NCBI GenBank assembly: GCA_963768175.1
Contig: CAVYGQ010000001.1
Coordinates: forward strand, 382,305-446,304
DNA length: 64,000 bases
Direction of reading: 5' to 3'
From: Candidatus Doudnabacteria bacterium
Lineage (GTDB): Bacteria; Patescibacteriota; Doudnabacteria; UBA920
A program made the translations under genes and the position numbers. Shown here one piece after another: positions 8,736 through 62,441 of the stretch. The notes beneath the pieces are model-generated. The model was given only the letters and a program-made list of their open reading frames with translations. It searched no databases and was not told the origin of the DNA. The stretch's first letter is position 1. Each line of letters starts with the position of its first letter.

Positions 8736-8744
8736 AATCGTAAA

Positions 8745-8808
8745 ATTTCAAATACCAAATTACAAATCTCAAATGAATGTCAAATTTTTAAAATTTAAAA
8801 TTAATGTT
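8745..8808. repeat. intergenic imperfect palindrome built from CAAAT pentamer repeats
   Basis: aatttcaaataccaaattacaaatctcaaat ... atttgatatttgaaattggaaatttgaaatt. The arms are reverse complements of each other. Confidence 0.5.
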
Positions 8809-9369
8809 TTATTTGATATTTGAAATTGGAAATTTGAAATTACTTATTATTTCGTCAACTTTCTTATACAACTCCTTTATGCTCCCAATGTTATCTATGC
8901 GATAATCGGCCCGTTTGCCCATTTCCGGAATGCTGATTTCCGTCAACTCTTTTTCCTGTTCCCGAAATTCCTGAAAATTCATGACAGCATCGTCAATTTT
9001 TTCACGGCGGATTTGATAACGCGCAAAACGGACGTCAAAAGGCGCGGTCACGTAAATAATCTTCGCGCCCAAATCCTTAACCGCCCTTTCCTGTTCGTCC
9101 ATGCGCAAACCATTGATCACGGATACGCCTGTTTTGGAAGCTTTGGCTCTTTCTGCCAAAACCCTGTATAAAATCTCGTTGCCGAATATATTTCTCAAAC
9201 CCAAGCCCAAATCAATTTCGTTCCGGCGCGATTTTGGCAAACGCAATAAATCCAAAATTTCATCCAAAATCTGGCTGAACTTAACGCTAAAGGCGCCATA
9301 CTGTTTTTCCAAGTATCTGGCGACTGTGTCTTTACCAGCGAGTTTTTCTCCAACAAGACCAATAATCAT
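8809..9369 (-). CDS. P-loop NTPase, putative (deoxy)nucleotide/nucleoside kinase (paralog 1)
   Basis: 186 aa; the N-terminal P-loop GLVGEKLAGKDT is atypical, with D at the Ser/Thr position. The C-terminal block ADYRIDNIGSIKELYKKVDEII is shared with the paralog at 9988-10542. It sits inside the dTTP-synthesis gene cluster. Confidence 0.45.
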   Translation of the reverse strand: MIIGLVGEKLAGKDTVARYLEKQYGAFSVKFSQILDEILDLLRLPKSRRNEIDLGLGLRNIFGNEILYRVLAERAKASKTGVSVINGLRMDEQERAVKDLGAKIIYVTAPFDVRFARYQIRREKIDDAVMNFQEFREQEKELTEISIPEMGKRADYRIDNIGSIKELYKKVDEIISNFKFPISNIK

Positions 9370-9373
9370 AAAA

Positions 9374-9468
9374 CTAATGACAAAAATTAAATAAATGACA
9401 AAATTGACAAAAATAATAAGCTAAGTATTTTTTTAATTTTTGCTCATTTTCGCCATTTTTGCTCATTA
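9374..9468. repeat. family A intergenic palindromic element (aatgacaaaaattaaataaatgacaaaattgacaaaaat ... atttttgctcattttcgccatttttgctcatt)
   Basis: Inverted halves built on TGACAAAA / TTTTGCTCA units, between the kinase start and the dut stop. Confidence 0.75.
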
Positions 9469-9906: not shown

Positions 9907-9929
9907 AGAATAAATGACAAGATTGATAA

Positions 9930-9990
9930 GATTTAAATGATTGACAAGAATAGCTGTACAGAATTCTTGTCATTCATGTCATTGTTGTCA
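9930..9990. repeat. variant family A-like palindrome (gattgacaagaatagctgtacagaattcttgtcattcatgtcattgttgtcattc)
   Basis: Carries a GTCATT-type inverted repeat around a central agctgtacag core. Confidence 0.5.
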
Positions 9991-10542
9991 TTCTTTTAAT
10001 TTGATTAATATTTCATCAATCTTCCCAAACAACTCCTCTAAACTTCCTTCATTCACAATCGTCCAATCCGCACGCGCTATGGGGCCGGCTTGATTTAAAT
10101 TTTCAATCTGGGATTTGTCGCGTGATTCCAGTTCTTGTGCGGAAAGCGGCCTTTGCGGCCGTTTAGCCATGCGGGCCGCGCGCGTCGAAAAAGAAGAATA
10201 TATCGCTAAAACCTTAAATGCCTGCCCAAATTCTTTTTCCATAGCCAAGGACTCTTCCCAGCTGTATAAGCTTTCTATAATAACCGATGATGTTACAAAA
10301 AATTTTTTTACGGCCAGCAAATTGGCAACTGCCATTGCGGCCATGCCGTTTTGGGATCGAAATTCTTCGCGAACTAACTTCTCGTTTGCCTCGCTTAAAG
10401 ACAAACCGCGCTTTTGAACTTCATCCAAAACAGCCTGCCCGAAATAAACTTTGGGCCAACTAGTCTTCTTAAGCAGATAATCGGTTGTTTCTGTTTTTCC
10501 GGCTCCGGCTAAACCAACCACGGCAAGAACAATATTTGACAT
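9988..10542 (-). CDS. P-loop NTPase, putative (deoxy)nucleotide/nucleoside kinase (paralog 2)
   Basis: 184 aa; P-loop VVGLAGAGKTE, and the C-terminus ADWTIVNEGSLEELFGKIDEIL is paralogous to 8809-9369. Confidence 0.45.
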   Translation of the reverse strand: MSNIVLAVVGLAGAGKTETTDYLLKKTSWPKVYFGQAVLDEVQKRGLSLSEANEKLVREEFRSQNGMAAMAVANLLAVKKFFVTSSVIIESLYSWEESLAMEKEFGQAFKVLAIYSSFSTRAARMAKRPQRPLSAQELESRDKSQIENLNQAGPIARADWTIVNEGSLEELFGKIDEILIKLKE

Positions 10543-10545
10543 AGA

Positions 10546-10642
10546 TTAAATGACAAAAATTAAATAAATGACAAAATTGACAAAAATGCAAATCAGCTAA
10601 TTTTTTAATTTTTATTATTTTTGCTCATTTTTGTCATTTCCC
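10546..10642. repeat. family A intergenic palindromic element
   Basis: taaatgacaaaaattaaataaatgacaaaattgacaaaaatgc ... atttttgctcatttttgtcatttcc. Confidence 0.75.
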
Positions 10643-15065: not shown

Positions 15066-15830
15066 CTAATCTCCTTTTCGTTCCCCTGCCAAGAAAGCTC
15101 GTATGTCTTTAACCGTGCTCATAAACTGGGCCGGGAAGATTATGGTGGAATTTTTTTCTACCGATATTTCCGCCATCGTCTGTAAATTCCGCAGTTGCAA
15201 GGCAATCGGATGCTTAGCGATAACGTCCGCGGCGTCGGCCAATTTCTGCGCGGAGAGGAATTCTCCTTCCGCGGCAATTATCTTGGCGCGCTTTTCGCGT
15301 TCGGCCTCGGCCTGCTTAGCCATAGCCCGTTGCATATTTTCCGGCAGTTCAATATCTTTAATTTCCACCAAGGACACAATTACGCCCCACGGCTCGGTGT
15401 GCGTGTCCAAAACCGTCCTGATTTCCTGGTTAATAGTCACCCTTTCGGAAAGAATCTCATCTAACTGGAACTTGCCAACAATATTGCGGATGGTGGTTTG
15501 CGCTATTTGGTTAATGGCTGACATCACATTCTCAATAGCCACGATGCTTTTGACCGCGTCCACTACCTGATAATAGGCCACGGCGGAAATATCTACAGAG
15601 ACATTATCTTTAGTGATTATTTTTTGCGGCGGAATCGGCAAAGTAATGGTGCGCAAATCCACTTTTCGGACTTTGTCTATATACGGAATGACCATAGTTA
15701 AACCCGGCTGCTTAATACCGACGATTTTCCCGAAGCGGAATACCACGCCTTTTTGGTACTGCTGGATAACGCGGAAGGCGGGAAGGATAAAGAAAACAAA
15801 GATGATGATGACTAACGAGAGAATGTCCAT
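15066..15830 (-). CDS. SPFH/band-7 (stomatin/prohibitin-like) membrane protein
   Basis: N-terminal TM helix, an SPFH core, and a C-terminal coiled coil (AKQAEAEREKRAKIIAAEGEF). Confidence 0.8.
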   Translation of the reverse strand: MDILSLVIIIFVFFILPAFRVIQQYQKGVVFRFGKIVGIKQPGLTMVIPYIDKVRKVDLRTITLPIPPQKIITKDNVSVDISAVAYYQVVDAVKSIVAIENVMSAINQIAQTTIRNIVGKFQLDEILSERVTINQEIRTVLDTHTEPWGVIVSLVEIKDIELPENMQRAMAKQAEAEREKRAKIIAAEGEFLSAQKLADAADVIAKHPIALQLRNLQTMAEISVEKNSTIIFPAQFMSTVKDIRAFLAGERKGD

Positions 15831-15837
15831 AGGGTTA

Positions 15838-15930
15838 AATGAGCAAAAATGACATAATTGACAAAAATGAGCAAAAATTACTGCAGCTCTATTTTCGTCG
15901 TTTTTGTCACTTTTTTAATTTTTGTCATTA
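15838..15930. repeat. family A intergenic palindromic element with a central CTGCAG core
   Basis: aaatgagcaaaaatgacataattgacaaaaatgagcaaaaattactgcagct ... tttttgtcacttttttaatttttgtcatt. Confidence 0.75.
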
Positions 15931-16350
15931 ATCAATTACTTCCACTCCCATGCTCCTGCACGTGCCGCGGATAATTTTTTCGGCGGCGGCAAGGTCGTTG
16001 GCGTTTAAATCCTGCATTTTCTTTTCCGCAATCTCCCGCACTTGTTTGGCGGTGATTTTGCCGACTTTTGTGGTTAAAGGATTTGCGGACCCTTTTGCCA
16101 AACCGATGGCTTTCATAATTAAATTGGAAGCCGGCGGAGTTTTAAGGACAAAACTAAAAGACCGGTCTTCGTAAATGGTCATTTGCACCGGGATAATCAT
16201 ATCCCCACCCGCGGTTTTATCGTTAAATTCTTTAACAAACTGGGCAATGTTAATGCCGTGGGGACCGAGCGCGGTGCCAACCGGCGGCGCCGGGGTAGCC
16301 TTGCCTGCCGGAAGCTGGAGCTTTAACTGAACTTTGATCTTTTTAGCCAT
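15928..16350 (-). CDS. rplK: 50S ribosomal protein L11
   Basis: [35 protein letters not shown] matches the L11 N-domain. Confidence 0.9.
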
Positions 16351-18057: not shown

Positions 18058-18300
18058 GAAATGACAAAAATTAAAAAAATAATAAAAATGACAAAAGTGA
18101 CAAAAACGGCATTTATGCCGTCCCGAATGGAATGAGGGATCCCCCAACTTCGTTTCGGGACGATATCTATAATAATATTAAAAATAAGGTTTATCGTTTT
18201 TGTTCATTTCCGTCCGCCTCGGCTCGCGCTCGCCTCGATTCGACAATCAAGTCGAAGCGGGCCGAGCGAGACGGGTCGTTTTTGTCATTTCTGTCATTAG
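18058..18300. repeat. composite family A + family B element plus an extra GC hairpin
   Basis: atgacaaaaattaaaaaaataataaaaatgacaaaagtgacaaaaac, then ggcatttatgcc-gtcccgaatggaatgagggatccc (the B core), then a long imperfect hairpin cggctcgcgctcgcctcgattcgac...gtcgaagcgggccgagcgag, and finally ttttgtcatttctgtcatt. Confidence 0.7.
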
Positions 18301-23817: not shown

Positions 23818-23912
23818 TTCAATGACAAAAATTAAAAAAATGACAAAATTGACAAAAATATACTGCAGCTAATTTTTGCTCATTTCCTTCGTTTTCGTCA
23901 TTTTTGTTCATT
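23818..23912. repeat. family A intergenic palindromic element (about 95% identical to the 24721-24815 copy)
   Basis: aatgacaaaaattaaaaaaatgacaaaattgacaaaaatatactgcagctaatttttgctcatttccttcgttttcgtcatttttgttcattt. Confidence 0.8.
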
Positions 23913-23915
23913 TGG

Positions 23916-24720: not shown

Positions 24721-24815
24721 CTAATGACAAAAATTAAAAAAATGACAAAATTGACAAAAATACACTGCAGCTAATTTTTACTCATTTCCGTCGTTTTTGT
24801 CATTTTTGCTCATTT
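24721..24815. repeat. family A intergenic palindromic element
   Basis: ctaatgacaaaaattaaaaaaatgacaaaattgacaaaaatacactgcagctaatttttactcatttccgtcgtttttgtcatttttgctcattt. Confidence 0.8.
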
Positions 24816-29683: not shown

Positions 29684-29788
29684 TAGCGACCCTAATACCC
29701 GAATTCCACCCGAATTATCCGAATTGGGCCCATTCGGGTCATTCGGTCCGCCAGCTGGCGGATAATTCGTGTCATTCGTGTCGGTTAA
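29684..29788. repeat. family C leader element: CCGAAT(T) iterons at about 10-bp periodicity followed by inverted ATTCGG copies and an ATTCGTGTCATTCGTGTCGGTTAA module
   Basis: cccgaattccacccgaattatccgaattgggcccattcgggtcattcggtccgccagctggcggataattcgtgtcattcgtgtcggttaatt. It occupies the entire upstream region of frr on the minus strand. Confidence 0.7.
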
Positions 29789-30850
29789 TTAATTGCTTGG
29801 GTTAATATAAACTCCGGAGTAAGCTATTTGCGGCAATGCGGGATCTATTAAAATATAATTAATGAATCCGGCGGTTACAATGCCTTGGGTCTGCCAGCTT
29901 AAACCGCCATCCAAAGATTTGTAAACTGTACCACCCACGCTGACATAAATTATACTGCTGTTGTCTCTGGAAACGGCTATGGCGCGGGCTGGATTCTGGC
30001 CCGGCTGGACAGGCAGGCTTTGCGCCGTCCAAGTTTGCCCGCCGTCCAAGCTTTTATACAAACCTTTGTCCGTAGTCAAGTAAACCAGGCTGGGGGTTTT
30101 CAAATCGCTATAGAACTGATGATAAGCCCCGACTTCGGAATTCCCAGCAATATAATCAATGCTGGCCACACCACCGGTGTTTTTGAAACCGGCGGTGAGT
30201 TCGGTAAAAGTCGTTCCGGAATCGGTGGATTTATATAAACCTTTATCTTTTAATAAAACAAAAATATTGTCCTGCCATAAAACTTCGTTAACCTGATCGT
30301 TAAAGTTGTTGGCCAACTGCCAGGTTATGCCGCTATCGGAGCTTTTAACCACACTTCCTAAAGTTGTGCCAATGACCATTTGATTGGAATTGGCCGAGTT
30401 AATGGCTACCGAACGCACCGGATTGGATGCGGTGGCTTCGTGATAAACTTCATTCCAGCTGGCTCCGCCGTCCGTGGTTTTTAGCAAACAGCCGTGGCTC
30501 ACACATAAACCCGCGGCATAAATTATTTTGGAATTTTGTGGGTTTATGGCAAAATCATAAACTTGGATGTTAGACAAAATGTTTGACCAAGTAGCGGCGG
30601 AGTCCTGGGATTCATACAATCCGTTGGTATAGGTGCCGGCAAAAACCGTCTGGCTGTTAGAAGGATCAAACGCCAGTTTGGAAATGTAAGTTGATGACAA
30701 ACTTCCGGTCCCAGTTTTCAAGGTGTCGGCCGGCCTCCAGTCCGCTCCGCCGTTTACCGTCTTAAATACCCCCGCCTGCACTGGAGCCGCAAAAGGATTA
30801 CAAGCGGCGGATATTAATACCACGCTAACTATTAAAATAATCTTTTTCAT
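29789..30850 (-). CDS. secreted BNR/Asp-box repeat protein (Ycf48/sialidase-like beta-propeller)
   Basis: Signal peptide, then at least 6 S-x-D-x-G-x-T-W type repeats (GGADWRP, SQDSAATW, TDGGASW, SDSGITW, TDSGTTF, LDGGQTW, LDGGLSW). Confidence 0.7.
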   Translation of the reverse strand: MKKIILIVSVVLISAACNPFAAPVQAGVFKTVNGGADWRPADTLKTGTGSLSSTYISKLAFDPSNSQTVFAGTYTNGLYESQDSAATWSNILSNIQVYDFAINPQNSKIIYAAGLCVSHGCLLKTTDGGASWNEVYHEATASNPVRSVAINSANSNQMVIGTTLGSVVKSSDSGITWQLANNFNDQVNEVLWQDNIFVLLKDKGLYKSTDSGTTFTELTAGFKNTGGVASIDYIAGNSEVGAYHQFYSDLKTPSLVYLTTDKGLYKSLDGGQTWTAQSLPVQPGQNPARAIAVSRDNSSIIYVSVGGTVYKSLDGGLSWQTQGIVTAGFINYILIDPALPQIAYSGVYINPSN

Positions 30851-30851
30851 A

Positions 30852-30946
30852 TAGCGACCCTAATATCCGAATGTCATCCGAATTATCCGAATCAAACCCT
30901 TTCGGGTCATTCGGGTTTTAATTCGTATCATTCGGATCGGTTATAT
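30852..30946. repeat. family C leader element, second copy
   Basis: tagcgaccctaatatccgaatgtcatccgaattatccgaatcaaaccctttcgggtcattcgggttttaattcgtatcattcggatcggtta. It is a direct repeat of 29684-29788 and flanks the BNR gene on its other side. Confidence 0.7.
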
Positions 30947-31792: not shown

Positions 31793-31883
31793 AACAATGA
31801 TGTAGTTTTTCGATTTCTATGTTTAAATTATAACATCAAAAACCGCTTTAAGCAAAAAGTAGGTTAGGGGCATGTCTCGCTAA

Positions 31884-31926
31884 CAAGGGGCATCCTTGTG
31901 CTGCACAAGGATGCCCCTTGTTTTTT
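31884..31926 (+). terminator. hairpin CAAGGGGCATCCTTGTGCTGCACAAGGATGCCCCTTG + T6 (family F)
   Basis: 17-bp stem with loop GCTG and a TTTTTT tail. It is oriented for + strand termination although both neighbours are on the minus strand. Confidence 0.6.
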
Positions 31927-31943
31927 AGATAATGCCAAATTTA

Positions 31944-35804: not shown

Positions 35805-36074
35805 TTAGTCGTTTGCCATACTTACTCTTTTTTTGCGTTCTTCTTCCAATTTCCCCCGAAGTTCGTTAATTTGTCGGTCAATATAATTATAGGAATCCGG
35901 GCTTGTCGATTTTCCACGTTCTGTCTCCTTAAGTATAATTTGTCGCCTTAACTCAATTTCCGCATCTGAATAAGAACAGTCGAGATGGTTAACGCGATAA
36001 GATTCCAGCCAAGCTTTTGGGTTTCTCAAAAGTTCTTCACGATGTCGTTCAAAATCTTCTAAAGATTCCGGCAT
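35805..36074 (-). CDS. hypothetical protein (89 aa) between gatA and gatB
   Basis: A charged, helical small ORF; no motif. Confidence 0.35.
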   Translation of the reverse strand: MPESLEDFERHREELLRNPKAWLESYRVNHLDCSYSDAEIELRRQIILKETERGKSTSPDSYNYIDRQINELRGKLEEERKKRVSMAND

Positions 36075-36080
36075 ATTTAT

Positions 36081-37568
36081 CTATTTAATTAAAGGATGTT
36101 TCTTATGCCACTCCGTAACCTGCTGGTAGGCGTAGCCGACGTTAAAAATCTTCTGTTCGCCCCATTGCGGGCCGATTATCTGCAGGCCAGCCGGCAGACC
36201 GTCCATAGAAGGGGTCGTGCCGTCAGTCGGGCGGGCAAAGCCGCAAGGCACGGAAATGGCAGGCAAACCGGCTAAATTGCAATTGACTACCAAACGGTCG
36301 GCAATATAAGCAAAAATCGGGTCGTTTTGAGCAATGCCGGATTTAGGCGCCACATTGGGCTGGGTCGGCGTCAGTAAAACATCTACCTCTTTAAACACTT
36401 CAGCGAACTCGTTTACCAGCAACCGGCGAATTTTTTGCGCGCGCTTGTAATAAGCGTCGTAATAGCCGGCAGACAAAACATAAGTGCCGGTCATAATCCT
36501 TCTTTTGGCTTCGTCGCCAAAACCTTCGGCGCGGCTCTTGGTATAAACTTCCATTAAGTCTTTGGCTTCTTTGGTTACATGGCCAAAACGTATACCGTCA
36601 TATTTAGCCAAATTGGAACTGATTTCCGAAGGGCAAATAATCGCATAAACCATCTGGCCGTAATGAGTGTTCGGCAGGCTGACTTCCACTAACTCCGCCC
36701 CCAACCGCTCAACCTGCTTAATAGCCTCATTCACCCGTTGTTCCACTTCTGGTTCCATTCCTTCCAAAAAATATTCTTTGGGAATGCCGATTTTAATACC
36801 CTTTAAATCGCGCGTTAAATGCTTGTAGTATGCCGGCACTTCCATCGGTCCGGTGGTCGCGTCTTTAGGATCAAGGCCGGCGATGTATTCAGCAATATAA
36901 GCGGCGTCTTCCGCGGACAAACACAAAAATCCCTGTGTGTCCATGCTGGAAGCCATGGAGATAACGCCATAGCGCGAAACGCGGCCGTAGGTCGGCTTGT
37001 AGCCGGTAATGCCGCACATGCTTGCCGGACCACGAATGCTGCCGCCGGTATCCGTCCCCAGCGCGTACGGACAAAGGCCCGCGGCTACCGCCGCCCCGCT
37101 GCCGCTGGAAGATCCGGCCGGCATCCTGGTTTTATCCCAGGGGTTTTTGGTAAATCCGTAAGCCGAACTCTCCCCGCTTGAGCCGTGCGCAAATTGGTCT
37201 TGGTTGGTTTTGCCTACCAGTACCGCCTTCTGCCCTTTTAATTTTGCGATGACGGTGGAATCGTAAGGTGGAATATATTGGTCCAAAATTTTTGATGCCG
37301 CCGTGGTACGGATTCCCTTAGTGCAAAACATATCTTTAGCCGCGTAAGGGATGCCGCACAAAAACGGATTTTCGCCCGGGGAATTAATAAAATCGTCGGC
37401 ATCCTTTGCCTGCTTTAAGGCCTGCTCTTCCGTAACGGTAAGAAACGCGTTTAAATCGCTCTTTTTTATCCGCGACAAAAAATACTTCGTCAGTTCAACG
37501 GAGGAGACTTTCTTTTCATCGAGCAATTTTCTAAGCTCAGTAAGTTGTAAAAATTCAAAGTTCATCAA
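36081..37568 (-). CDS. gatA: Glu-tRNA(Gln) amidotransferase subunit A
   Basis: Amidase signature GGSSSGSGAAVAAG and the Ser-cisSer-Lys triad region; 495 aa. Confidence 0.92.
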   Translation of the reverse strand: MMNFEFLQLTELRKLLDEKKVSSVELTKYFLSRIKKSDLNAFLTVTEEQALKQAKDADDFINSPGENPFLCGIPYAAKDMFCTKGIRTTAASKILDQYIPPYDSTVIAKLKGQKAVLVGKTNQDQFAHGSSGESSAYGFTKNPWDKTRMPAGSSSGSGAAVAAGLCPYALGTDTGGSIRGPASMCGITGYKPTYGRVSRYGVISMASSMDTQGFLCLSAEDAAYIAEYIAGLDPKDATTGPMEVPAYYKHLTRDLKGIKIGIPKEYFLEGMEPEVEQRVNEAIKQVERLGAELVEVSLPNTHYGQMVYAIICPSEISSNLAKYDGIRFGHVTKEAKDLMEVYTKSRAEGFGDEAKRRIMTGTYVLSAGYYDAYYKRAQKIRRLLVNEFAEVFKEVDVLLTPTQPNVAPKSGIAQNDPIFAYIADRLVVNCNLAGLPAISVPCGFARPTDGTTPSMDGLPAGLQIIGPQWGEQKIFNVGYAYQQVTEWHKKHPLIK

Positions 37569-37981
37569 AGTGAGTAGTGAGTAGTGCTACAATTACTTAA
37601 GTTTTGCTGTTAAAGAATTAAGCATTTTCAATACTTCCAAATTCAAGCTTTCTGCTGTCGAATAATCTATTTTTGAATATAATCTTTTTGCAATAATCAG
37701 TTGTGTTTCAAGTTCCGCCGCAGAGCCAAAGGATATACCCAAATGCTGATTAAATTCTAGGGTATGATTCCGACATGCACCTTCCGCAATATTTGAAGCG
37801 ATACTAACCGAAGCCCTTTGCATCTGGGAACTCAATCCAAATTTTTCTTCCGGCGGGAACAGCTTAGTAATTTTATAAATTTCAATAACTAACTCTATAC
37901 TTTTTTGCCAAACAATCAATTCTTTATAATTTTGGACTTTCATGGTTTTTTCTAATCACTAAACACTACTCACTACCCACT
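37569..37981. mobile_element. four-helix-bundle gene cassette flanked by 18-bp inverted repeats AGTGAGTAGTGAGTAGTG / CACTACTCACTACCCACT, inserted between gatC and gatA
   Basis: Left IR at 37569-37586 and right IR at 37964-37981; the right IR overlaps the gatC stop. Solo copies of the same motif lie at 45744-45770 and 49809-49838. Confidence 0.55.
37593..37943 (-). CDS. four-helix-bundle protein (TIGR02436; 23S rRNA IVS protein / bAvd-like family)
   Basis: 116 aa; WQKSIELVIEIYKITKLFPPEEKFGLSSQMQRASVSIASNIAEG is the hallmark of this family. Confidence 0.85.
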   Translation of the reverse strand: MKVQNYKELIVWQKSIELVIEIYKITKLFPPEEKFGLSSQMQRASVSIASNIAEGACRNHTLEFNQHLGISFGSAAELETQLIIAKRLYSKIDYSTAESLNLEVLKMLNSLTAKLK

Positions 37982-38261
37982 AAAGAATAGCCTTTACCTT
38001 GTAAAACCCGTCTTTCATTTCGGGGGCCTGGGAAAAAATTTCCTGATGGTTTTGGGCTACCACCGCTTTGTCGTCCCGCTGGACATTAACCAAACCGGTA
38101 ACTTCAAAGACCTCGTCTACCCCAGAAACGTCAACTTTTTTTAATTCATCGACAAACTCCAAAACCGTGGAAAGGTCTTTTTGGTACTTTTCCACTTCGG
38201 TTTCCGTTAAATGGATTCTGGCCAACTTGGAAAGTTTTATGACTTCTTCTCGTGTAAGCAT
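37980..38261 (-). CDS. gatC: Asp/Glu-tRNA amidotransferase subunit C
   Basis: The 94-aa core MLTREEVIKLSKLARIHLTETEVEKYQKDLSTVLEFVDELKKVD matches GatC. The ORF-track N-terminal extension is probably not translated. Confidence 0.8.
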   Translation of the reverse strand: MLTREEVIKLSKLARIHLTETEVEKYQKDLSTVLEFVDELKKVDVSGVDEVFEVTGLVNVQRDDKAVVAQNHQEIFSQAPEMKDGFYKVKAIL

Positions 38262-38378
38262 GGATAAATTATACAAAATTCTGACAGTATTTGCAACATC
38301 ATACGCTACAAAGAGACTCTTTGCGCCACGCAAAGAGTCTCTTTGTCTTTTGTGTTTAAATTTTGTCAATTTTAGCAA

Positions 38379-40910: not shown

Positions 40911-41456
40911 ATGATATATCTCTATATTATTATAGTCCTGGCGATTATAGTAATCCTCTTGTTCAACGGCTTAGTCCGCTCCAAAAACCGCGTGGACGAA
41001 GCCTGGAGCGACATAGACGTGCAATTAAAGCGCAGATACGATTTAATCCCGAACTTGGTGGAAACGGTAAAGGGATACGCCGCGCACGAATCGGGTGTGT
41101 TTGAAAAAGTCACCGCCGCGCGCACCGCGGCCATGAGCGCCGGCACAATGGACGATAAATTAAAACAGGAGAACGCCCTGTCTGGCACCTTAAAGAGTTT
41201 GTTTGCGGTGGCGGAAAATTATCCGGACTTAAAAGCCAATGCTAATTTTTTACAGTTGCAGAGCGACTTAACCGATACCGAAGACAAAATCCAGGCCGCC
41301 CGCCGCTTTTACAACGGCAATGTCCGCGACTTCAACACCAAAATCCAGCAATTCCCCGGCAACATGTTTGCTTCCATGTTCGGCTTTACCAAACGCGACT
41401 TCTTTGGGATAGACGAAAGCGGCCCCGAGGCGCAGCCGGTCAAGGTTCAATTTTAA
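40911..41456 (+). CDS. lemA: LemA family protein
   Basis: N-terminal TM plus the LemA core (RRYDLIPNLVETVKGYAAHE, RRFYNGNVRDFN). Confidence 0.85.
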   Translation: MIYLYIIIVLAIIVILLFNGLVRSKNRVDEAWSDIDVQLKRRYDLIPNLVETVKGYAAHESGVFEKVTAARTAAMSAGTMDDKLKQENALSGTLKSLFAVAENYPDLKANANFLQLQSDLTDTEDKIQAARRFYNGNVRDFNTKIQQFPGNMFASMFGFTKRDFFGIDESGPEAQPVKVQF

Positions 41457-41545
41457 TTGAACCTTGACCCCGAGCGAAGCCGAGGGGTGAAAGTGCAATT
41501 TTAATTGAACCTTGACCCCGAGCGAAGCCGAGGGGTGAAAGTGCA
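41430..41545. repeat. tandem repeat (2.4 x 48 bp) beginning with a perfect 14-bp-arm palindrome GGTCAAGGTTCAATT-tt-AATTGAACCTTGACC that spans the lemA stop
   Basis: The unit caattttaattgaaccttgaccccgagcgaagccgaggggtgaaagtg is repeated. It contains the CCCCGAGCGAAGCCGAGGGG motif also seen in the clpC terminator. Confidence 0.7.
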
Positions 41546-41628
41546 ATTTTAATCATTCAAACATTTAAACATACAAGCATTTAAGCATGTTTATATGCTT
41601 TAATGTTTATATGCTTAGATGACCCCCA

Positions 41629-45743: not shown

Positions 45744-45770
45744 CCACTGTCCACTAAACACTACTCACTA
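45744..45770. repeat. solo copy of the CACTACTCACTA motif (family E)
   Basis: ccactgtccactaaacactactcacta; 19 nt are identical to the right IR of the four-helix-bundle cassette. It lies directly upstream of the clpC start. Confidence 0.55.
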
Positions 45771-49360: not shown

Positions 49361-50185
49361 ATGTACCAAACCTTAATTAAACCCCTGTTCTCCGACGTAA
49401 AAACTTTTGTCTTAGATACCCTCTTTCCAATTTCCTGCCTAAGTTGCGGCAAGGAGGGAGTTTTTACCCAGCACCACTTTTCAGACGATAACCAAAATTC
49501 TATCATTAAAAATACCGATTGTAGTATATCAACTGATAATCAAAATAGTACAAAAAGTGGTGCTGGGTTTATTTGCGCGGACTGCAAAGCTACGATGAAA
49601 AAACTGGAACACCAGCGCTGTATTGTCTGCCAAAAAAACACGCCGTTTGGCTTTACCCACCCTTACTGCCTAACTACTTTTGGCGCGGACGGGCTAATTA
49701 GTTTTTATGATTACCATGACGAAAAAGTAGCTAATATAATAATCAAAGGCAAATATAACTTTTTACCCGCCGTTTATTCCGAACTTGGCAAAATTATCGC
49801 CAATCAGTTAAAAACTAGCTACCCACTACTCACTACCCACTACTCACTTGTCCCCATTCCCCTTCACAGCTCCCGGCAGAGATGGCGCGGATTCAACCAG
49901 GCGGAAGTGCTATGCCAATCGCTAAGTGAAAACTTAGGCCTCGCGTGCATTAATGTACTAGTACGCTGTAAAATCACGAAAACGCAAAAAGATTTAAAAA
50001 AAGAAGGCCGGTTAAAAAATGTAGCAGATGCCTTTAAATTAAAATCCGGAACCGATGTCCACAGCAAAAACATCATCTTGGTAGACGATGTCACTACCAC
50101 CGGCGCCACACTTTTGGAAGCGGCCAAAGTCTTAAAACGCAACGGCGCGGCCAAAGTCATTTGCCTGACCGTTGCCAGGGATTAA
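49361..50185 (+). CDS. comFC: ComF family protein (phosphoribosyltransferase-domain competence protein)
   Basis: N-terminal CxxC...CxxC zinc ribbon (CLSCGKEG, CADCKATM) and a C-terminal PRTase motif ILVDDVTTTGATL. Confidence 0.8.
   Translation: MYQTLIKPLFSDVKTFVLDTLFPISCLSCGKEGVFTQHHFSDDNQNSIIKNTDCSISTDNQNSTKSGAGFICADCKATMKKLEHQRCIVCQKNTPFGFTHPYCLTTFGADGLISFYDYHDEKVANIIIKGKYNFLPAVYSELGKIIANQLKTSYPLLTTHYSLVPIPLHSSRQRWRGFNQAEVLCQSLSENLGLACINVLVRCKITKTQKDLKKEGRLKNVADAFKLKSGTDVHSKNIILVDDVTTTGATLLEAAKVLKRNGAAKVICLTVARD
49809..49838. repeat. family E motif CTACCCACTACTCACTACCCACTACTCACT embedded in-frame in comFC (encodes YPLLTTHYSL)
   Basis: A duplicated CCCACTACTCACT unit inside the coding sequence. 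Confidence 0.55.
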
Positions 50186-53035: not shown

Positions 53036-53100
53036 CAAAATCTAAATTATCTATACTATTTTAGCGGAAAATACGTACCTGGTCAATTTGCTCTTATAAC

Positions 53101-53135
53101 AATGGGCACCATTGTGCTGCACAATGGTGCCCATT
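53101..53135 (+). terminator. hairpin AATGGGCACCATTGTGCTGCACAATGGTGCCCATT (family F, sister of 31884-31926)
   Basis: 15-bp stem with the same GTGCTGCAC loop. The stem differs from the other copy by compensatory substitutions. Confidence 0.55.
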
Positions 53136-53315
53136 GTTTATGATACAAAATTAGCGGTTTTTTGGTTTTAGCGGTAAAATTAAAGTAAAGCAATAAGCTT
53201 TAAAATTAATGGATCTTAGACACTACCGCAAACGTAATACATAAGAGACCCCCCTATTTTATCGTTTTTGCTAAAAATCAGCCTTTGTTGTCTAATAAAC
53301 AGTTACTTGTAACAA

Positions 53316-61150: not shown

Positions 61151-61280
61151 AAAACAAAAAAAATCCTAAATTCTAAAAACTAAATACTAAACAAATTCTA
61201 AACACCAAATCACAAAATTTTAAAATTTGGATTTTAATATTTATTTTTTGTTTAGATTTTAGATATTAGAATTTAGAATT
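61151..61280. repeat. intergenic imperfect palindrome built from CTAAA/AATTC short repeats
   Basis: tcctaaattctaaaaactaaatactaaacaaattctaaacaccaaat ... atttggattttaatatttattttttgtttagattttagatattagaatttagaatt. Confidence 0.5.
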
Positions 61281-62441
61281 TTACTGCTGGGTCAAATCCA
61301 GGTAGTACAATCCCCCGTCTTGCGCGTTCCTAAAAAACAGCTTGTCCGAAGTGGCGTTTAAAAACAAATCCCTGCCATCAATGGCACTGCCTGCGGAGGC
61401 ATATTGCTTTTTGTCCAAAGTGGAAATATCCATCCGGTAAAAACTGTCCACAGTCAGGCTGTTTTCACCTATTATGCCCGATGTCGGGACCGCCGCGTAA
61501 ATTACGTTGCTGTCTTTATCCCAAGCCGTTTTATCCACGGTCGTAAACAGACCTAGATTTTTTATCTCTCCGGAAGTCAAATTATACACCCAAAGCTGAT
61601 AATTCTGGGTAACGGGATCCTTTTTGCCAAATAAAAACTTTTGGCCATCCGGGCTCCACAGCACGCCAAAGTTTTGGCCGTTCTTTACCAAACCTTTCCA
61701 CAGTTTGCCATCCGCGGTCACGGAATTAATAAAATTGTTGGCCGAGGCGTTTTGGGTTTCAAAATACAATACCTGAGTACCGTCCGGCGAGACGTAAAGC
61801 TGGTCGTCGGTCTCCCACATAGCGCCCAAGGTTTGATGATTGCTGGTATCCGGATTTCCCAAGCTTAAAGAAGCTTTGTTATCTTGCAGCCAAACATAAA
61901 TGATTTTATCGCCCGTCGGCATCCAGTCCACAGACTCTACCTGCGCCGGCAAATCGGTATAAAGCCCGGTGTTACTGTTAAAATAACTCCAGGTATTTTT
62001 ACCGCTTAAGTCGGTAAGCTGGGCAATAAAATCGTTGCCTTTAGCCGGCCACAAAATTTTAGTGATACCCGGCTTGAGCGGAATGTCCAGCTGTTTTTTG
62101 GAGGTCAAGCTGAGCTGGCCGTTGTTGTTTTGCAAAGTAACCTGGTAAAGGTTGCCCTGATGGTCAAAATAGCTTATGCCCGTTCCATTAAAAAACAAGG
62201 CCGGCGAAACGACCTGATCCGAGGTCAGCTGGACAATATTGGAAGAATTATTTTGTAAAGGCGGGGTGCTGGAAGCGGTATTTTGGGTTACACTCGGGGT
62301 TGTAGAAGCTGTATTGTTAACAACTGTTGTTGACGGAGCCGGTGTTTTACTGCCTGCGTATTTAGAATAAATCAAAAACCCCAAAGTGCCGACAATAAGA
62401 ATGAATATCGCACCTAAAATGGCAATGGCTTTTTTGTTCAT
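61281..62441 (-). CDS. hypothetical membrane-anchored periplasmic protein with TolB/PD40-like beta-propeller repeats
   Basis: N-terminal TM, a Thr/Ser linker, then repeated xSPDG-type blades (YVSPDGTQVLYFE, LWSPDGQKFLFG). Confidence 0.45.
   Translation of the reverse strand: MNKKAIAILGAIFILIVGTLGFLIYSKYAGSKTPAPSTTVVNNTASTTPSVTQNTASSTPPLQNNSSNIVQLTSDQVVSPALFFNGTGISYFDHQGNLYQVTLQNNNGQLSLTSKKQLDIPLKPGITKILWPAKGNDFIAQLTDLSGKNTWSYFNSNTGLYTDLPAQVESVDWMPTGDKIIYVWLQDNKASLSLGNPDTSNHQTLGAMWETDDQLYVSPDGTQVLYFETQNASANNFINSVTADGKLWKGLVKNGQNFGVLWSPDGQKFLFGKKDPVTQNYQLWVYNLTSGEIKNLGLFTTVDKTAWDKDSNVIYAAVPTSGIIGENSLTVDSFYRMDISTLDKKQYASAGSAIDGRDLFLNATSDKLFFRNAQDGGLYYLDLTQQ

Follow-up and report, generated by a model that had tools for sequence, protein, structure and literature searches.

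A four-helix-bundle gene enclosed by inverted heptamer arrays in the gatCAB operon of a Doudnabacteria bacterium: a probable mRNA counterpart of the 23S rRNA intervening sequence

We analysed a stretch of 64,000 nucleotides (nt) from a Candidatus Doudnabacteria bacterium (GCA_963768175.1, CAVYGQ010000001.1, positions 382,305-446,304 of the forward strand), referred to below as the window. In its gatCAB operon a gene of the TIGR02436/PF05635 family encoding a protein of 116 amino acids (aa), called here the four-helix-bundle (4HB) gene or protein, lies between gatC and gatA, with inverted arrays of tandem heptamers on either side. This cassette is an operon-borne variant of the intervening sequences (IVSs) of 23S rRNA genes that carry an open reading frame (ORF), and it appears to be one member of a large, undescribed set. 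By analogy with the rRNA elements, we consider it fairly probable that the cassette is an IVS-type element, a promoter-less 4HB gene within heptamer arrays, which resides in an mRNA spacer and is probably processed at its stem. Our confidence is high for the anatomy and for the polymorphism among relatives, and moderate for the proposed action of RNase III, which is deduced from likeness of architecture.

Results

Anatomy of the cassette

On the minus strand, the operon runs from a promoter-like site through gatC, the 4HB gene, gatA and an 89-aa ORF to gatB. The genes gatC (37980-38261; PF02686, E=1.3e-17) and gatA (36081-37565; Amidase PF01425, E=7e-143) are separated by a spacer of 412 nt, in which the 4HB gene occupies 37593-37943. 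The most likely gatA start is the ATG at 37565, which matches that of relatives (the alternative ORF limit is 37568). The 5' arm of the cassette (37948-37982) consists of five tandem heptamers, TAGTGGG TAGTGAG TAGTGTT TAGTGAT TAGAAAA, and the 3' arm (37569-37586), CACTACT CACTACT CACT, of about 2.5 CACTNNN units, the last of which ends 3 nt before the gatA ATG. It is the first 18 nt of the 5' arm that pair with the 3' arm: 37964-37981 and 37569-37586 are complementary at 17 of 18 positions, with 377 nt between them, and the lone mismatch, when read on the coding (minus) strand, is a G.U pair. The TAG stop codon of gatC (37980-37982) forms part of heptamer 1 and is overlapped by the right arm of the inverted repeat. 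Because seven is not a multiple of three, the five UAGs of the 5' arm close all three reading frames.

A preliminary description of this DNA had placed a 116-aa TIGR02436-type gene between gatC and gatA, all on the minus strand, within 18-nt inverted repeats of which the right one overlaps the gatC stop. The ORF calls, the domain matches and the pairing of the arms bear this out; the view of the arms as a simple inverted repeat had to be given up, as they are portions of tandem heptamer arrays.

The terminal stem was found in both the minimum free energy and the centroid folds of 37550-38000(-), the overall folding energy of which was unremarkable (z=-0.95). The promoter-like site upstream of gatC, TTGCAA-17-TATAAT (38268-38296, minus strand), is a consensus match only, and a consensus-type scan of the coding strand detected no promoter-like or terminator-like site inside the cassette. 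As 38268-38296 is the sole promoter-like site near the cassette on its strand, the 4HB gene probably depends on transcription of the operon. No target-site duplication was visible by eye outside the arms (CTT/TAGTGGG ... CTCACT/TTG), the true ends of the element being undefined.

The encoded protein matched PF05635 over the full length of the model (1-106 of 106; 115.6 bits against a cut-off of 33.8, E=1.5e-33) and TIGR02436 with 114.1 bits (cut-off 24), which places it in the 23S rRNA intervening-sequence protein family. The nearest solved homologue in a PDB search was 2GSC (XCC0516 of Xanthomonas; E=2.2e-22, residues 6-104), with 2RLD as a second match (E=3.3e-6), and these similarities point to a four-helix-bundle fold. 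An exact look-up of the protein returned no record and relatives were therefore reached via homologues; the homology search gave at least 7,990 relatives among 8,000 scored candidates.

The gat operons of relatives

The gat loci of relatives, labelled by L-numbers, were obtained from metagenome contigs scanned with GatA. In the closest relatives by GatA (84-89 % identical; L091-L095) there is no ORF at the gatC-gatA junction, and the spacer of 30-113 nt has the gatC stop and the gatA start as its exact limits. Most spacers of this type are hairpins of tandem units of 7-9 nt (fold z -2.5 to -9), commonly laid out as (TAGNNNN)n on the 5' side, a loop, and (NNNNCTA)n on the 3' side. The 4HB gene is missing from this junction not only in L091-L095 but also in L099-L105 and L131. 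It is present there, as in the window, in L001 and L012, in which the upstream synteny differs, and a 75-88 % identical gene with AGTG/CACT arms is found at the gatA-gatB junction in L011, L098, L102 (frameshifted), L162 and L164. The last of these carries both the ORF cassette at gatA-gatB and an ORF-less AGTG/CACT hairpin at gatC-gatA, and this hairpin is 80 % identical (81 of 101 positions) to the cassette of the window once the ORF is taken out of the latter. These junction states, above all those of L164, indicate that arms and ORF behave as one unit which can occupy either junction, and that loss of the ORF leaves the arms behind. Presence/absence polymorphism with ORF-less derivatives, as expected of a transposon and of MITEs (miniature inverted-repeat transposable elements), is thus observed in the form of empty, ORF-less and other-junction states.

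Among the gat-operon copies of the 4HB gene, pS was 0.66-0.82, i.e. saturated, and pN 0.06-0.15, with dN/dS below 0.1 among orthologues. Since pS is saturated while pN is low, the protein has been kept by selection and the copies are old. Despite the saturation of synonymous sites, the AGTG/CACT core of the arms is conserved across these copies. A discrete cassette flanked by inverted repeats and inserted in gatCAB, as first proposed, is supported by relatives without the gene at this place; the mobility suggested along with it holds on the evolutionary time scale only.

Two further observations were made at these junctions. The gatA-gatB junction of relatives holds a 75-aa ORF, inserts of 400-650 nt with other ORFs (spacers of L094, L099 and L107 examined) or the 4HB cassette, and is apparently a hot spot of small inserts. 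At gatC-gatA, hairpin arms have expanded on one side only, with 13 copies of GCTACAA in L098 (707-835) and five of CCTAGCA in L092 (289-361), from which rapid slippage of the arrays can be concluded.

Occurrence of the architecture at other loci

Generality was assessed with the best 80 of at least 583 loci encoding relatives (one genome per species), mostly from Patescibacteria. When a gene-enclosing inverted repeat with a score of at least 10 was taken as a bracket, 68 % of 79 4HB genes were bracketed, compared with 9 % of 266 other genes of the same loci (p=8e-19). An earlier null based on arm complementarity across loci, with a median of 12 for own pairs and of 7 for cross-locus pairs (the latter reaching up to 24), was only partly useful because many loci have unit families in common, and the control with genes of the same loci took its place.

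The flanks of the 4HB genes had a lag-7 periodicity of 0.33/0.31 against a background of 0.255. TAG was enriched 6.2-fold upstream and CTA 4.5-fold downstream, the spacing peaking at 7 nt and next at 8 nt, and near-perfect period-7 arrays were 9-fold denser at 4HB boundaries (0.61 vs 0.069 per kb). In 17 of 47 loci the chain opened with the stop codon of the upstream gene as its first TAG, and in 8 more that stop codon was located within the chain. Chain lengths ranged from 1 to 7 units with no sharp peak at five; this breadth lends no support to a match between the 5' arm and a pentamer.

With respect to orientation, the 4HB gene was co-directional with both neighbours in 66 of the 75 loci having both neighbours called, with gaps of approximately 35-45 nt upstream and 10-40 nt downstream at the co-directional loci. 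Host junctions included the N and C halves of a split transketolase, ABC ATPase and permease, DnaB and RecR, and sites upstream of PrgI-like genes. The conserved 16S/23S rRNA motifs that were looked for appeared in none of the 80 homologous loci. Proteins from the same operon context were no closer to one another than background, save for the gat clade and one Acutalibacteraceae locus pair, and vertical descent and re-targeting are therefore not separable.

The same arrangement was met in other bacteria and replicons. A Nostoc copy with (TAGGGAG)n/(CTCCCTA)n arms lies between the ribonucleotide reductase subunit genes, and a Geminocystis copy between parA and parB. On a plasmid of Anabaena sp. 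90 (L147) the gene is placed between cas6 and cas4 of a type I-D CRISPR-cas operon, with (AGGTGAC)n/(GTCACCT)n arms; it has the same position in the type I-D operon of a Pseudanabaena plasmid (L146), the arrays of which are direct, with 14 copies of AAAGCTA upstream and (AAAGCCA)n downstream. All seven copies from viral contigs had the same arm build. In Azospirillum lipoferum (L149) the copy resides within a 23S rRNA gene and its arms are inverted heptamers (CAGAGGA/CGGATGA).

A second cassette family

Genes of the PF13366 family (PDDEXK_3, 'GxxExxY') sit in a comparable way in operons of relatives from candidate-phyla bacteria (L162:645-1157, L166:1420-1925, L168:260-1925, L170 and L172). 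They are co-directional with their hosts and occur between secA and gatC, between galT and tpiA, and on both sides of a TraC-like gene in a PrgI to VirB4-like series. Most copies are bracketed by inverted unit arrays of the ACGAAT/ATTCGT type, which are conserved across genomes, one L168 copy having a related CGGAT-type unit instead, and the last codons of the ORF (GAT TCG TAG) are part of the 3' arm. In L166 a PDDEXK_3 cassette and a 4HB gene occur in one sugar-metabolism operon, and the ORF-less gatC-gatA hairpin of L094 is built of ACGAAT units. As ACGAAT-type arms go with PDDEXK_3 and TAG-led arms with the 4HB gene, the type of arm follows the ORF family. Searches of the PDDEXK_3 protein against viral contigs and plasmids gave no matches.

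Solo arrays in the clpC leader and the comFC-like gene

The motif CACTACTCACTA, allowing at most one mismatch, occurs eight times in the window against 0.05 expected. Only four CACT arrays are present: the two cassette arms, one upstream of the clpC start (45745-45769) and one in a ComFC-like ORF (49824-49848). The clpC array, CCACTGT CCACTAA ACACTAC TCACTAT (45745-45770, plus strand), stands alone 5 nt before the start codon and, as CCACTGTCCACTAAACACTACTCACTAT, closely resembles the 3' arm of the L164 cassette; 19 nt (CACTAAACACTACTCACTA) are common to 37957-37975 and 45752-45770. The array is missing from the closest relative, L151, which has the same promoter region and an unrelated leader, and which shares its metagenome of origin with the cassette-less L091.

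The array in the ComFC-like gene is in frame (49819-49848, plus strand) and encodes YPLLTTHYSL. L151 has homologous residues without the nucleotide repeat, and L153 has the same 25-nt array though the protein is just 70 % identical. Recurrence of the motif at the clpC start, with 19 identical nt, and within comFC had been reported before and stands, with the comFC coordinates corrected from 49809-49838 to 49819-49848. These two or three genomes, which bear on the point, give hints that arrays of the cassette type spread within cassette-bearing genomes. Across other loci, 10 of 27 distant arrays had a 7-mer in common with the arms of the local cassette, compared with 5.4 expected.

The comFC array was also considered as an insertion at the protein level, which was rejected after comparison with homologues; the nucleotide repeat alone varies among relatives. 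Elsewhere in the same ORF (49361-50185), an insertion of approximately 35-39 aa at residues ~34-72, between the cysteine pairs of the zinc ribbon (FTQHHFSDDNQNSII...STKSGAG), is present in a few close homologues only, and in other homologues (P0126, P0128) the position of the CACT array is a hot spot where longer insertions occur.

Discussion

Relation to the 23S rRNA intervening sequences

ORF-bearing IVSs of 23S rRNA are known in Leptospira, Coxiella burnetii, Brucella and Xanthomonas, to which A. lipoferum is added here. The window element has the same protein family (PF05635, 'S23p'), an ORF in the sense of the host transcript with no promoter of its own evident, and terminal inverted repeats, which enclose the ORF by forming a stem. 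In C. burnetii the IVS has a 28-bp terminal stem, which is cut by RNase III at the first repeat, and two or three tandem GACAGAT heptamers upstream of the S23p ORF, the copy number varying between strains (Warrier et al., PMC4990558). Tandem heptamers between the base of the stem and the start of the ORF are thus a further likeness, the window element having five TAG-led units. It differs in that its heptamers begin with a stop codon and end the upstream gene, and in the purifying selection on its ORF, the ORF of Coxiella having been reported to be decaying and probably untranslated (PMC4990558). The host is a protein-coding operon and not helix 25 or 45 of 23S rRNA; an Rfam scan of the window found three tRNAs only and no rRNA. 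With family, orientation, stem and heptamer arms all in common, location is the only one of the features compared in which the element departs from a classical IVS.

In rRNA, processing by RNase III has been shown; for the window element it is predicted by analogy. The cassette would be co-transcribed with gatCAB from the operon promoter; its TAG heptamers end the upstream reading frame and supply the gatC stop. RNase III would then cut the stem as in the rRNA IVSs, releasing the ORF segment and separating the gatC message from that of gatA-gatB. Such a break may be tolerated between cistrons or in an rRNA helix, not within a coding sequence; because no coding sequence is interrupted, this would explain why the sites in our sample are rRNA helices and co-directional intercistronic spacers. 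For spread to new sites, recombination between arrays is the simplest guess. The early and late mRNAs of phage T7 have intercistronic RNase III sites, which are short hairpins that neither enclose a gene nor consist of tandem units. The likeness lies in a hairpin between cistrons of one transcript, a cut in which would harm neither neighbour.

Several observations weigh against this explanation. All copies of the orthogroup with visible neighbours (75-100 % identical proteins from nine populations) are in the gat operon, an arrangement more in keeping with long residence, or with a functional tie to the operon, than with frequent movement. As this holds despite saturation, movement of the cassette must be rare and local, and this is the main caveat to calling it mobile. 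The 4HB gene is the only ORF of the cassette, in which no transposase or recombinase was found. A clear bracket is lacking in 32 % of the 79 loci, two plasmid copies (L146, L150) have direct instead of inverted arrays, and the stems are often 'beaded', with pairing limited to the heptamer cores. Mismatches in the stems of 57 loci were G.U in 26 cases and A.C in 30, which gives no signal of selection on the sense-strand RNA. Finally, the window and related genomes are rich in ORF-less tandem-unit hairpins, so that the stem architecture is not exclusive to the 4HB gene.

Alternative explanations

The absence of a G.U over A.C bias leaves room for a role of the arrays at the DNA level. In that case the cassette would be a mobile DNA element, moved or copied as DNA, with heptamer arrays as subterminal sites bound by the 4HB protein or a host factor, like the several short repeats at the ends of some transposons, and the RNA stem would be incidental. 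Conservation of the AGTG/CACT core at synonymous saturation would accordingly indicate recognition of sequence and not pairing alone. The occupation of two junctions, one of them by a copy consisting of arms alone, the solo 3' arm at clpC that the closest relative lacks, and the association of the arm unit with the ORF family (TAGNNNN with the 4HB gene, ACGAATNN with PDDEXK_3) all fit such an element. Known elements of this kind are the repetitive extragenic palindromic (REP) sequences with their REP-associated tyrosine transposase (RAYT) gene and MITEs, in which one gene is flanked by inverted short repeats and ORF-less hairpins are found elsewhere in the genome. The cassette resembles them in having ORF-less derivatives at intergenic sites, but it has no Y1 transposase or recognisable recombinase, its ORF is a 116-aa helical bundle without a catalytic domain, its arms are 7-nt tandem arrays and not a single palindrome, and no target duplication was seen at the arm ends. 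Co-orientation with the host operons (66/75) would be needless for an element acting on DNA only, and processing at the RNA level is established for the homologous rRNA IVS (PMC4990558). We therefore regard an exclusively DNA-level element as unlikely, although worth keeping in view.

It has also to be considered that the 4HB gene is a domesticated host gene and not a selfish insert, its product being a homo-oligomer which binds tandem UAG/CACU repeats in RNA and tunes how gatA, clpC and other array-bearing messages are translated or how stable they are. A precedent for comparison is the ring protein TRAP, which attaches to (G/U)AG triplets at spaced positions. That the gene is under strong purifying selection and has long resided in the gat operon agrees with such a regulator, as do the CACT arrays immediately upstream of the gatA, gatB and clpC start codons and the lack of the clpC and comFC arrays in the closest relative, whose population is also without the cassette at gatC-gatA. 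Moreover, heptamer arrays just upstream of start codons in Beggiatoaceae have been proposed as regulator sites (PMC4679880), and 2GSC is described, in the account of Lin 2006 given in PMC4990558, as a homopentameric ring, which may be set beside the five TAG units of the 5' arm. The broad distribution of TAG-chain lengths speaks against the latter correspondence. In addition, the excess of distant arrays sharing a 7-mer with local arms is modest, the gene is missing from close relatives that retain gatCAB, and the same architecture recurs in rRNA and in CRISPR-cas, partition and conjugation operons, which have no common function. Altogether a regulator of this type seems to us quite improbable.

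The two remaining alternatives are effectively refuted for this locus. According to the first, the 4HB gene is a degenerate Avd accessory gene of a diversity-generating retroelement (DGR). Avd is likewise pentameric, shares the four-helix-bundle fold and is distantly similar in sequence, but the scores against the DGR Avd model NF033474 (DivGenRetAVD; 23 bits) and Pfam bAvd PF22296 (25.6 bits) stay below the curated cut-offs of 80 and 40 bits, so that of the family assignment made originally, membership of TIGR02436/PF05635 stands and that of bAvd/Avd does not. In agreement with the preliminary description, none of the 20 ORFs annotated between 29.1 and 52.9 kb was identified as a reverse transcriptase; nor was one seen adjoining the 4HB gene in the gat-operon relatives. 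The check for a template/variable-repeat pair, which that description had recommended, found no such pair and no suitable long direct repeat in the window. Furthermore, heptamer arrays such as those flanking the window gene are not known as a feature of DGRs. The second, that the repeats are due to chance or are generic low-complexity sequence unconnected with the gene, could appeal to the many other ORF-less tandem-unit hairpins in the window and related genomes, and is refuted by the control comparisons, i.e. motif frequency, array density and bracketing, and by the AGTG/CACT arms accompanying the ORF to the other junction; the repeats are thus tied to the boundaries of the gene, as had been supposed.

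Relation to catalogued heptamer arrays and significance

The cassette also touches on the intergenic heptamer arrays catalogued as STRR (Calothrix and Nostoc), GGGAATC (Xanthomonas), GGGGAYT (Nostoc) and TAACTGA (Beggiatoaceae, cyanobacteria and Bacteroidetes), which have stayed unexplained both in Xanthomonas and Nostoc (PMC4692102) and in the Beggiatoaceae, cyanobacteria and Bacteroidetes (PMC4679880). These too are tandem units of 7 nt in spacers, often directly upstream of start codons and variable in copy number among relatives, and like the cassette arms they are often paired convergently, with 70-75 pairs per Xanthomonas genome. They share taxa with PF05635 genes, such as that of the 2GSC protein in Xanthomonas and the copies on cyanobacterial plasmids. 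The unit sequences are different, and neither PMC4692102 nor PMC4679880 mentions a four-helix-bundle gene. In the literature consulted, mostly outside subscription journals, we found no paper joining the 4HB family to heptamer arrays beyond the description of the Coxiella IVS. A link between the catalogued arrays and 4HB genes is thus suggested and not proven.

As a tentative extension, which we consider possible but not the likelier case, small ORFs of PF05635 and PF13366, each with tandem-unit arms of its own, might form an unrecognised class of cassettes in transcribed spacers, both rRNA helices and intercistronic regions. They would be tolerated through excision of the stem at the RNA level, their proteins would recognise their own arms, and the unexplained heptamer arrays and tandem-unit hairpins of cyanobacteria, Xanthomonas, Beggiatoaceae and candidate phyla would have arisen from derivatives of them that lack the ORF.

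The locus and the comparative data tie a very large protein family without known function to heptamer arrays that have been catalogued repeatedly, and they extend the concept of the rRNA intervening sequence to protein-coding operons. Cassette sites fall between genes for subunits of one complex, as with GatC/GatA/GatB, the split transketolase, ABC ATPase/permease and Cas6/Cas4. Should processing of the stem follow the rRNA pattern, mRNA cleavage would be obligatory inside essential operons of very small genomes, with a bearing on operon expression in candidate-phyla bacteria and on the spread of a gene without a recombinase. The arms offer testable substrates for RNase III, and the heptamer arrays for protein binding.

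Other features of the window

Around the gat operon, the 89-aa ORF between gatA and gatB (35805-36074, minus strand) had no Pfam or NCBIfam match, and an 18-bp perfect palindrome within 38308-38346, between secA and the gat promoter-like site, is probably a terminator. Another pair of probable terminators is formed by two 81 % identical copies of a GC-rich palindromic hairpin (31881-31932 and 53097-53148).

A dispersed intergenic hairpin element of approximately 93 nt is built of tandem 8-9-mers, (TGACAAAA)n, a loop and (TTTTGTCA)n, in at least six copies, two of which are 95 % identical (9376-9468, 10549-10641, 15830-15931, 23821-23913 and 24723-24815; also 9915-9995 and 18059-18298). The copies lie between co-directional minus-strand genes and enclose no ORF; a possible exception is the copy with a long loop at 18059-18298. 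Inverted heptamer arrays also form intergenic hairpins at 8743-8841 and 61161-61283, one being (AAATTTC)n/(GAAATTT)n and the other a 'CTA-first' array, (CTAAATN)n ... (NATTTAG)n, with a fold z of -8.4. Two hairpins of (CCGAATNN)n/(ATTCGG)n units (29684-29746 and 30852-30914), 86 % identical to each other, flank a BNR/Sortilin-like gene (29789-30850) between the frr and holB-like genes, and their unit is similar to that of the ACGAAT arms found around PDDEXK_3 genes in relatives. Right after a LemA-family gene, a near-perfect tandem duplication of 48 nt in 2.2 copies, with a palindrome inside, is present at 41438-41553.

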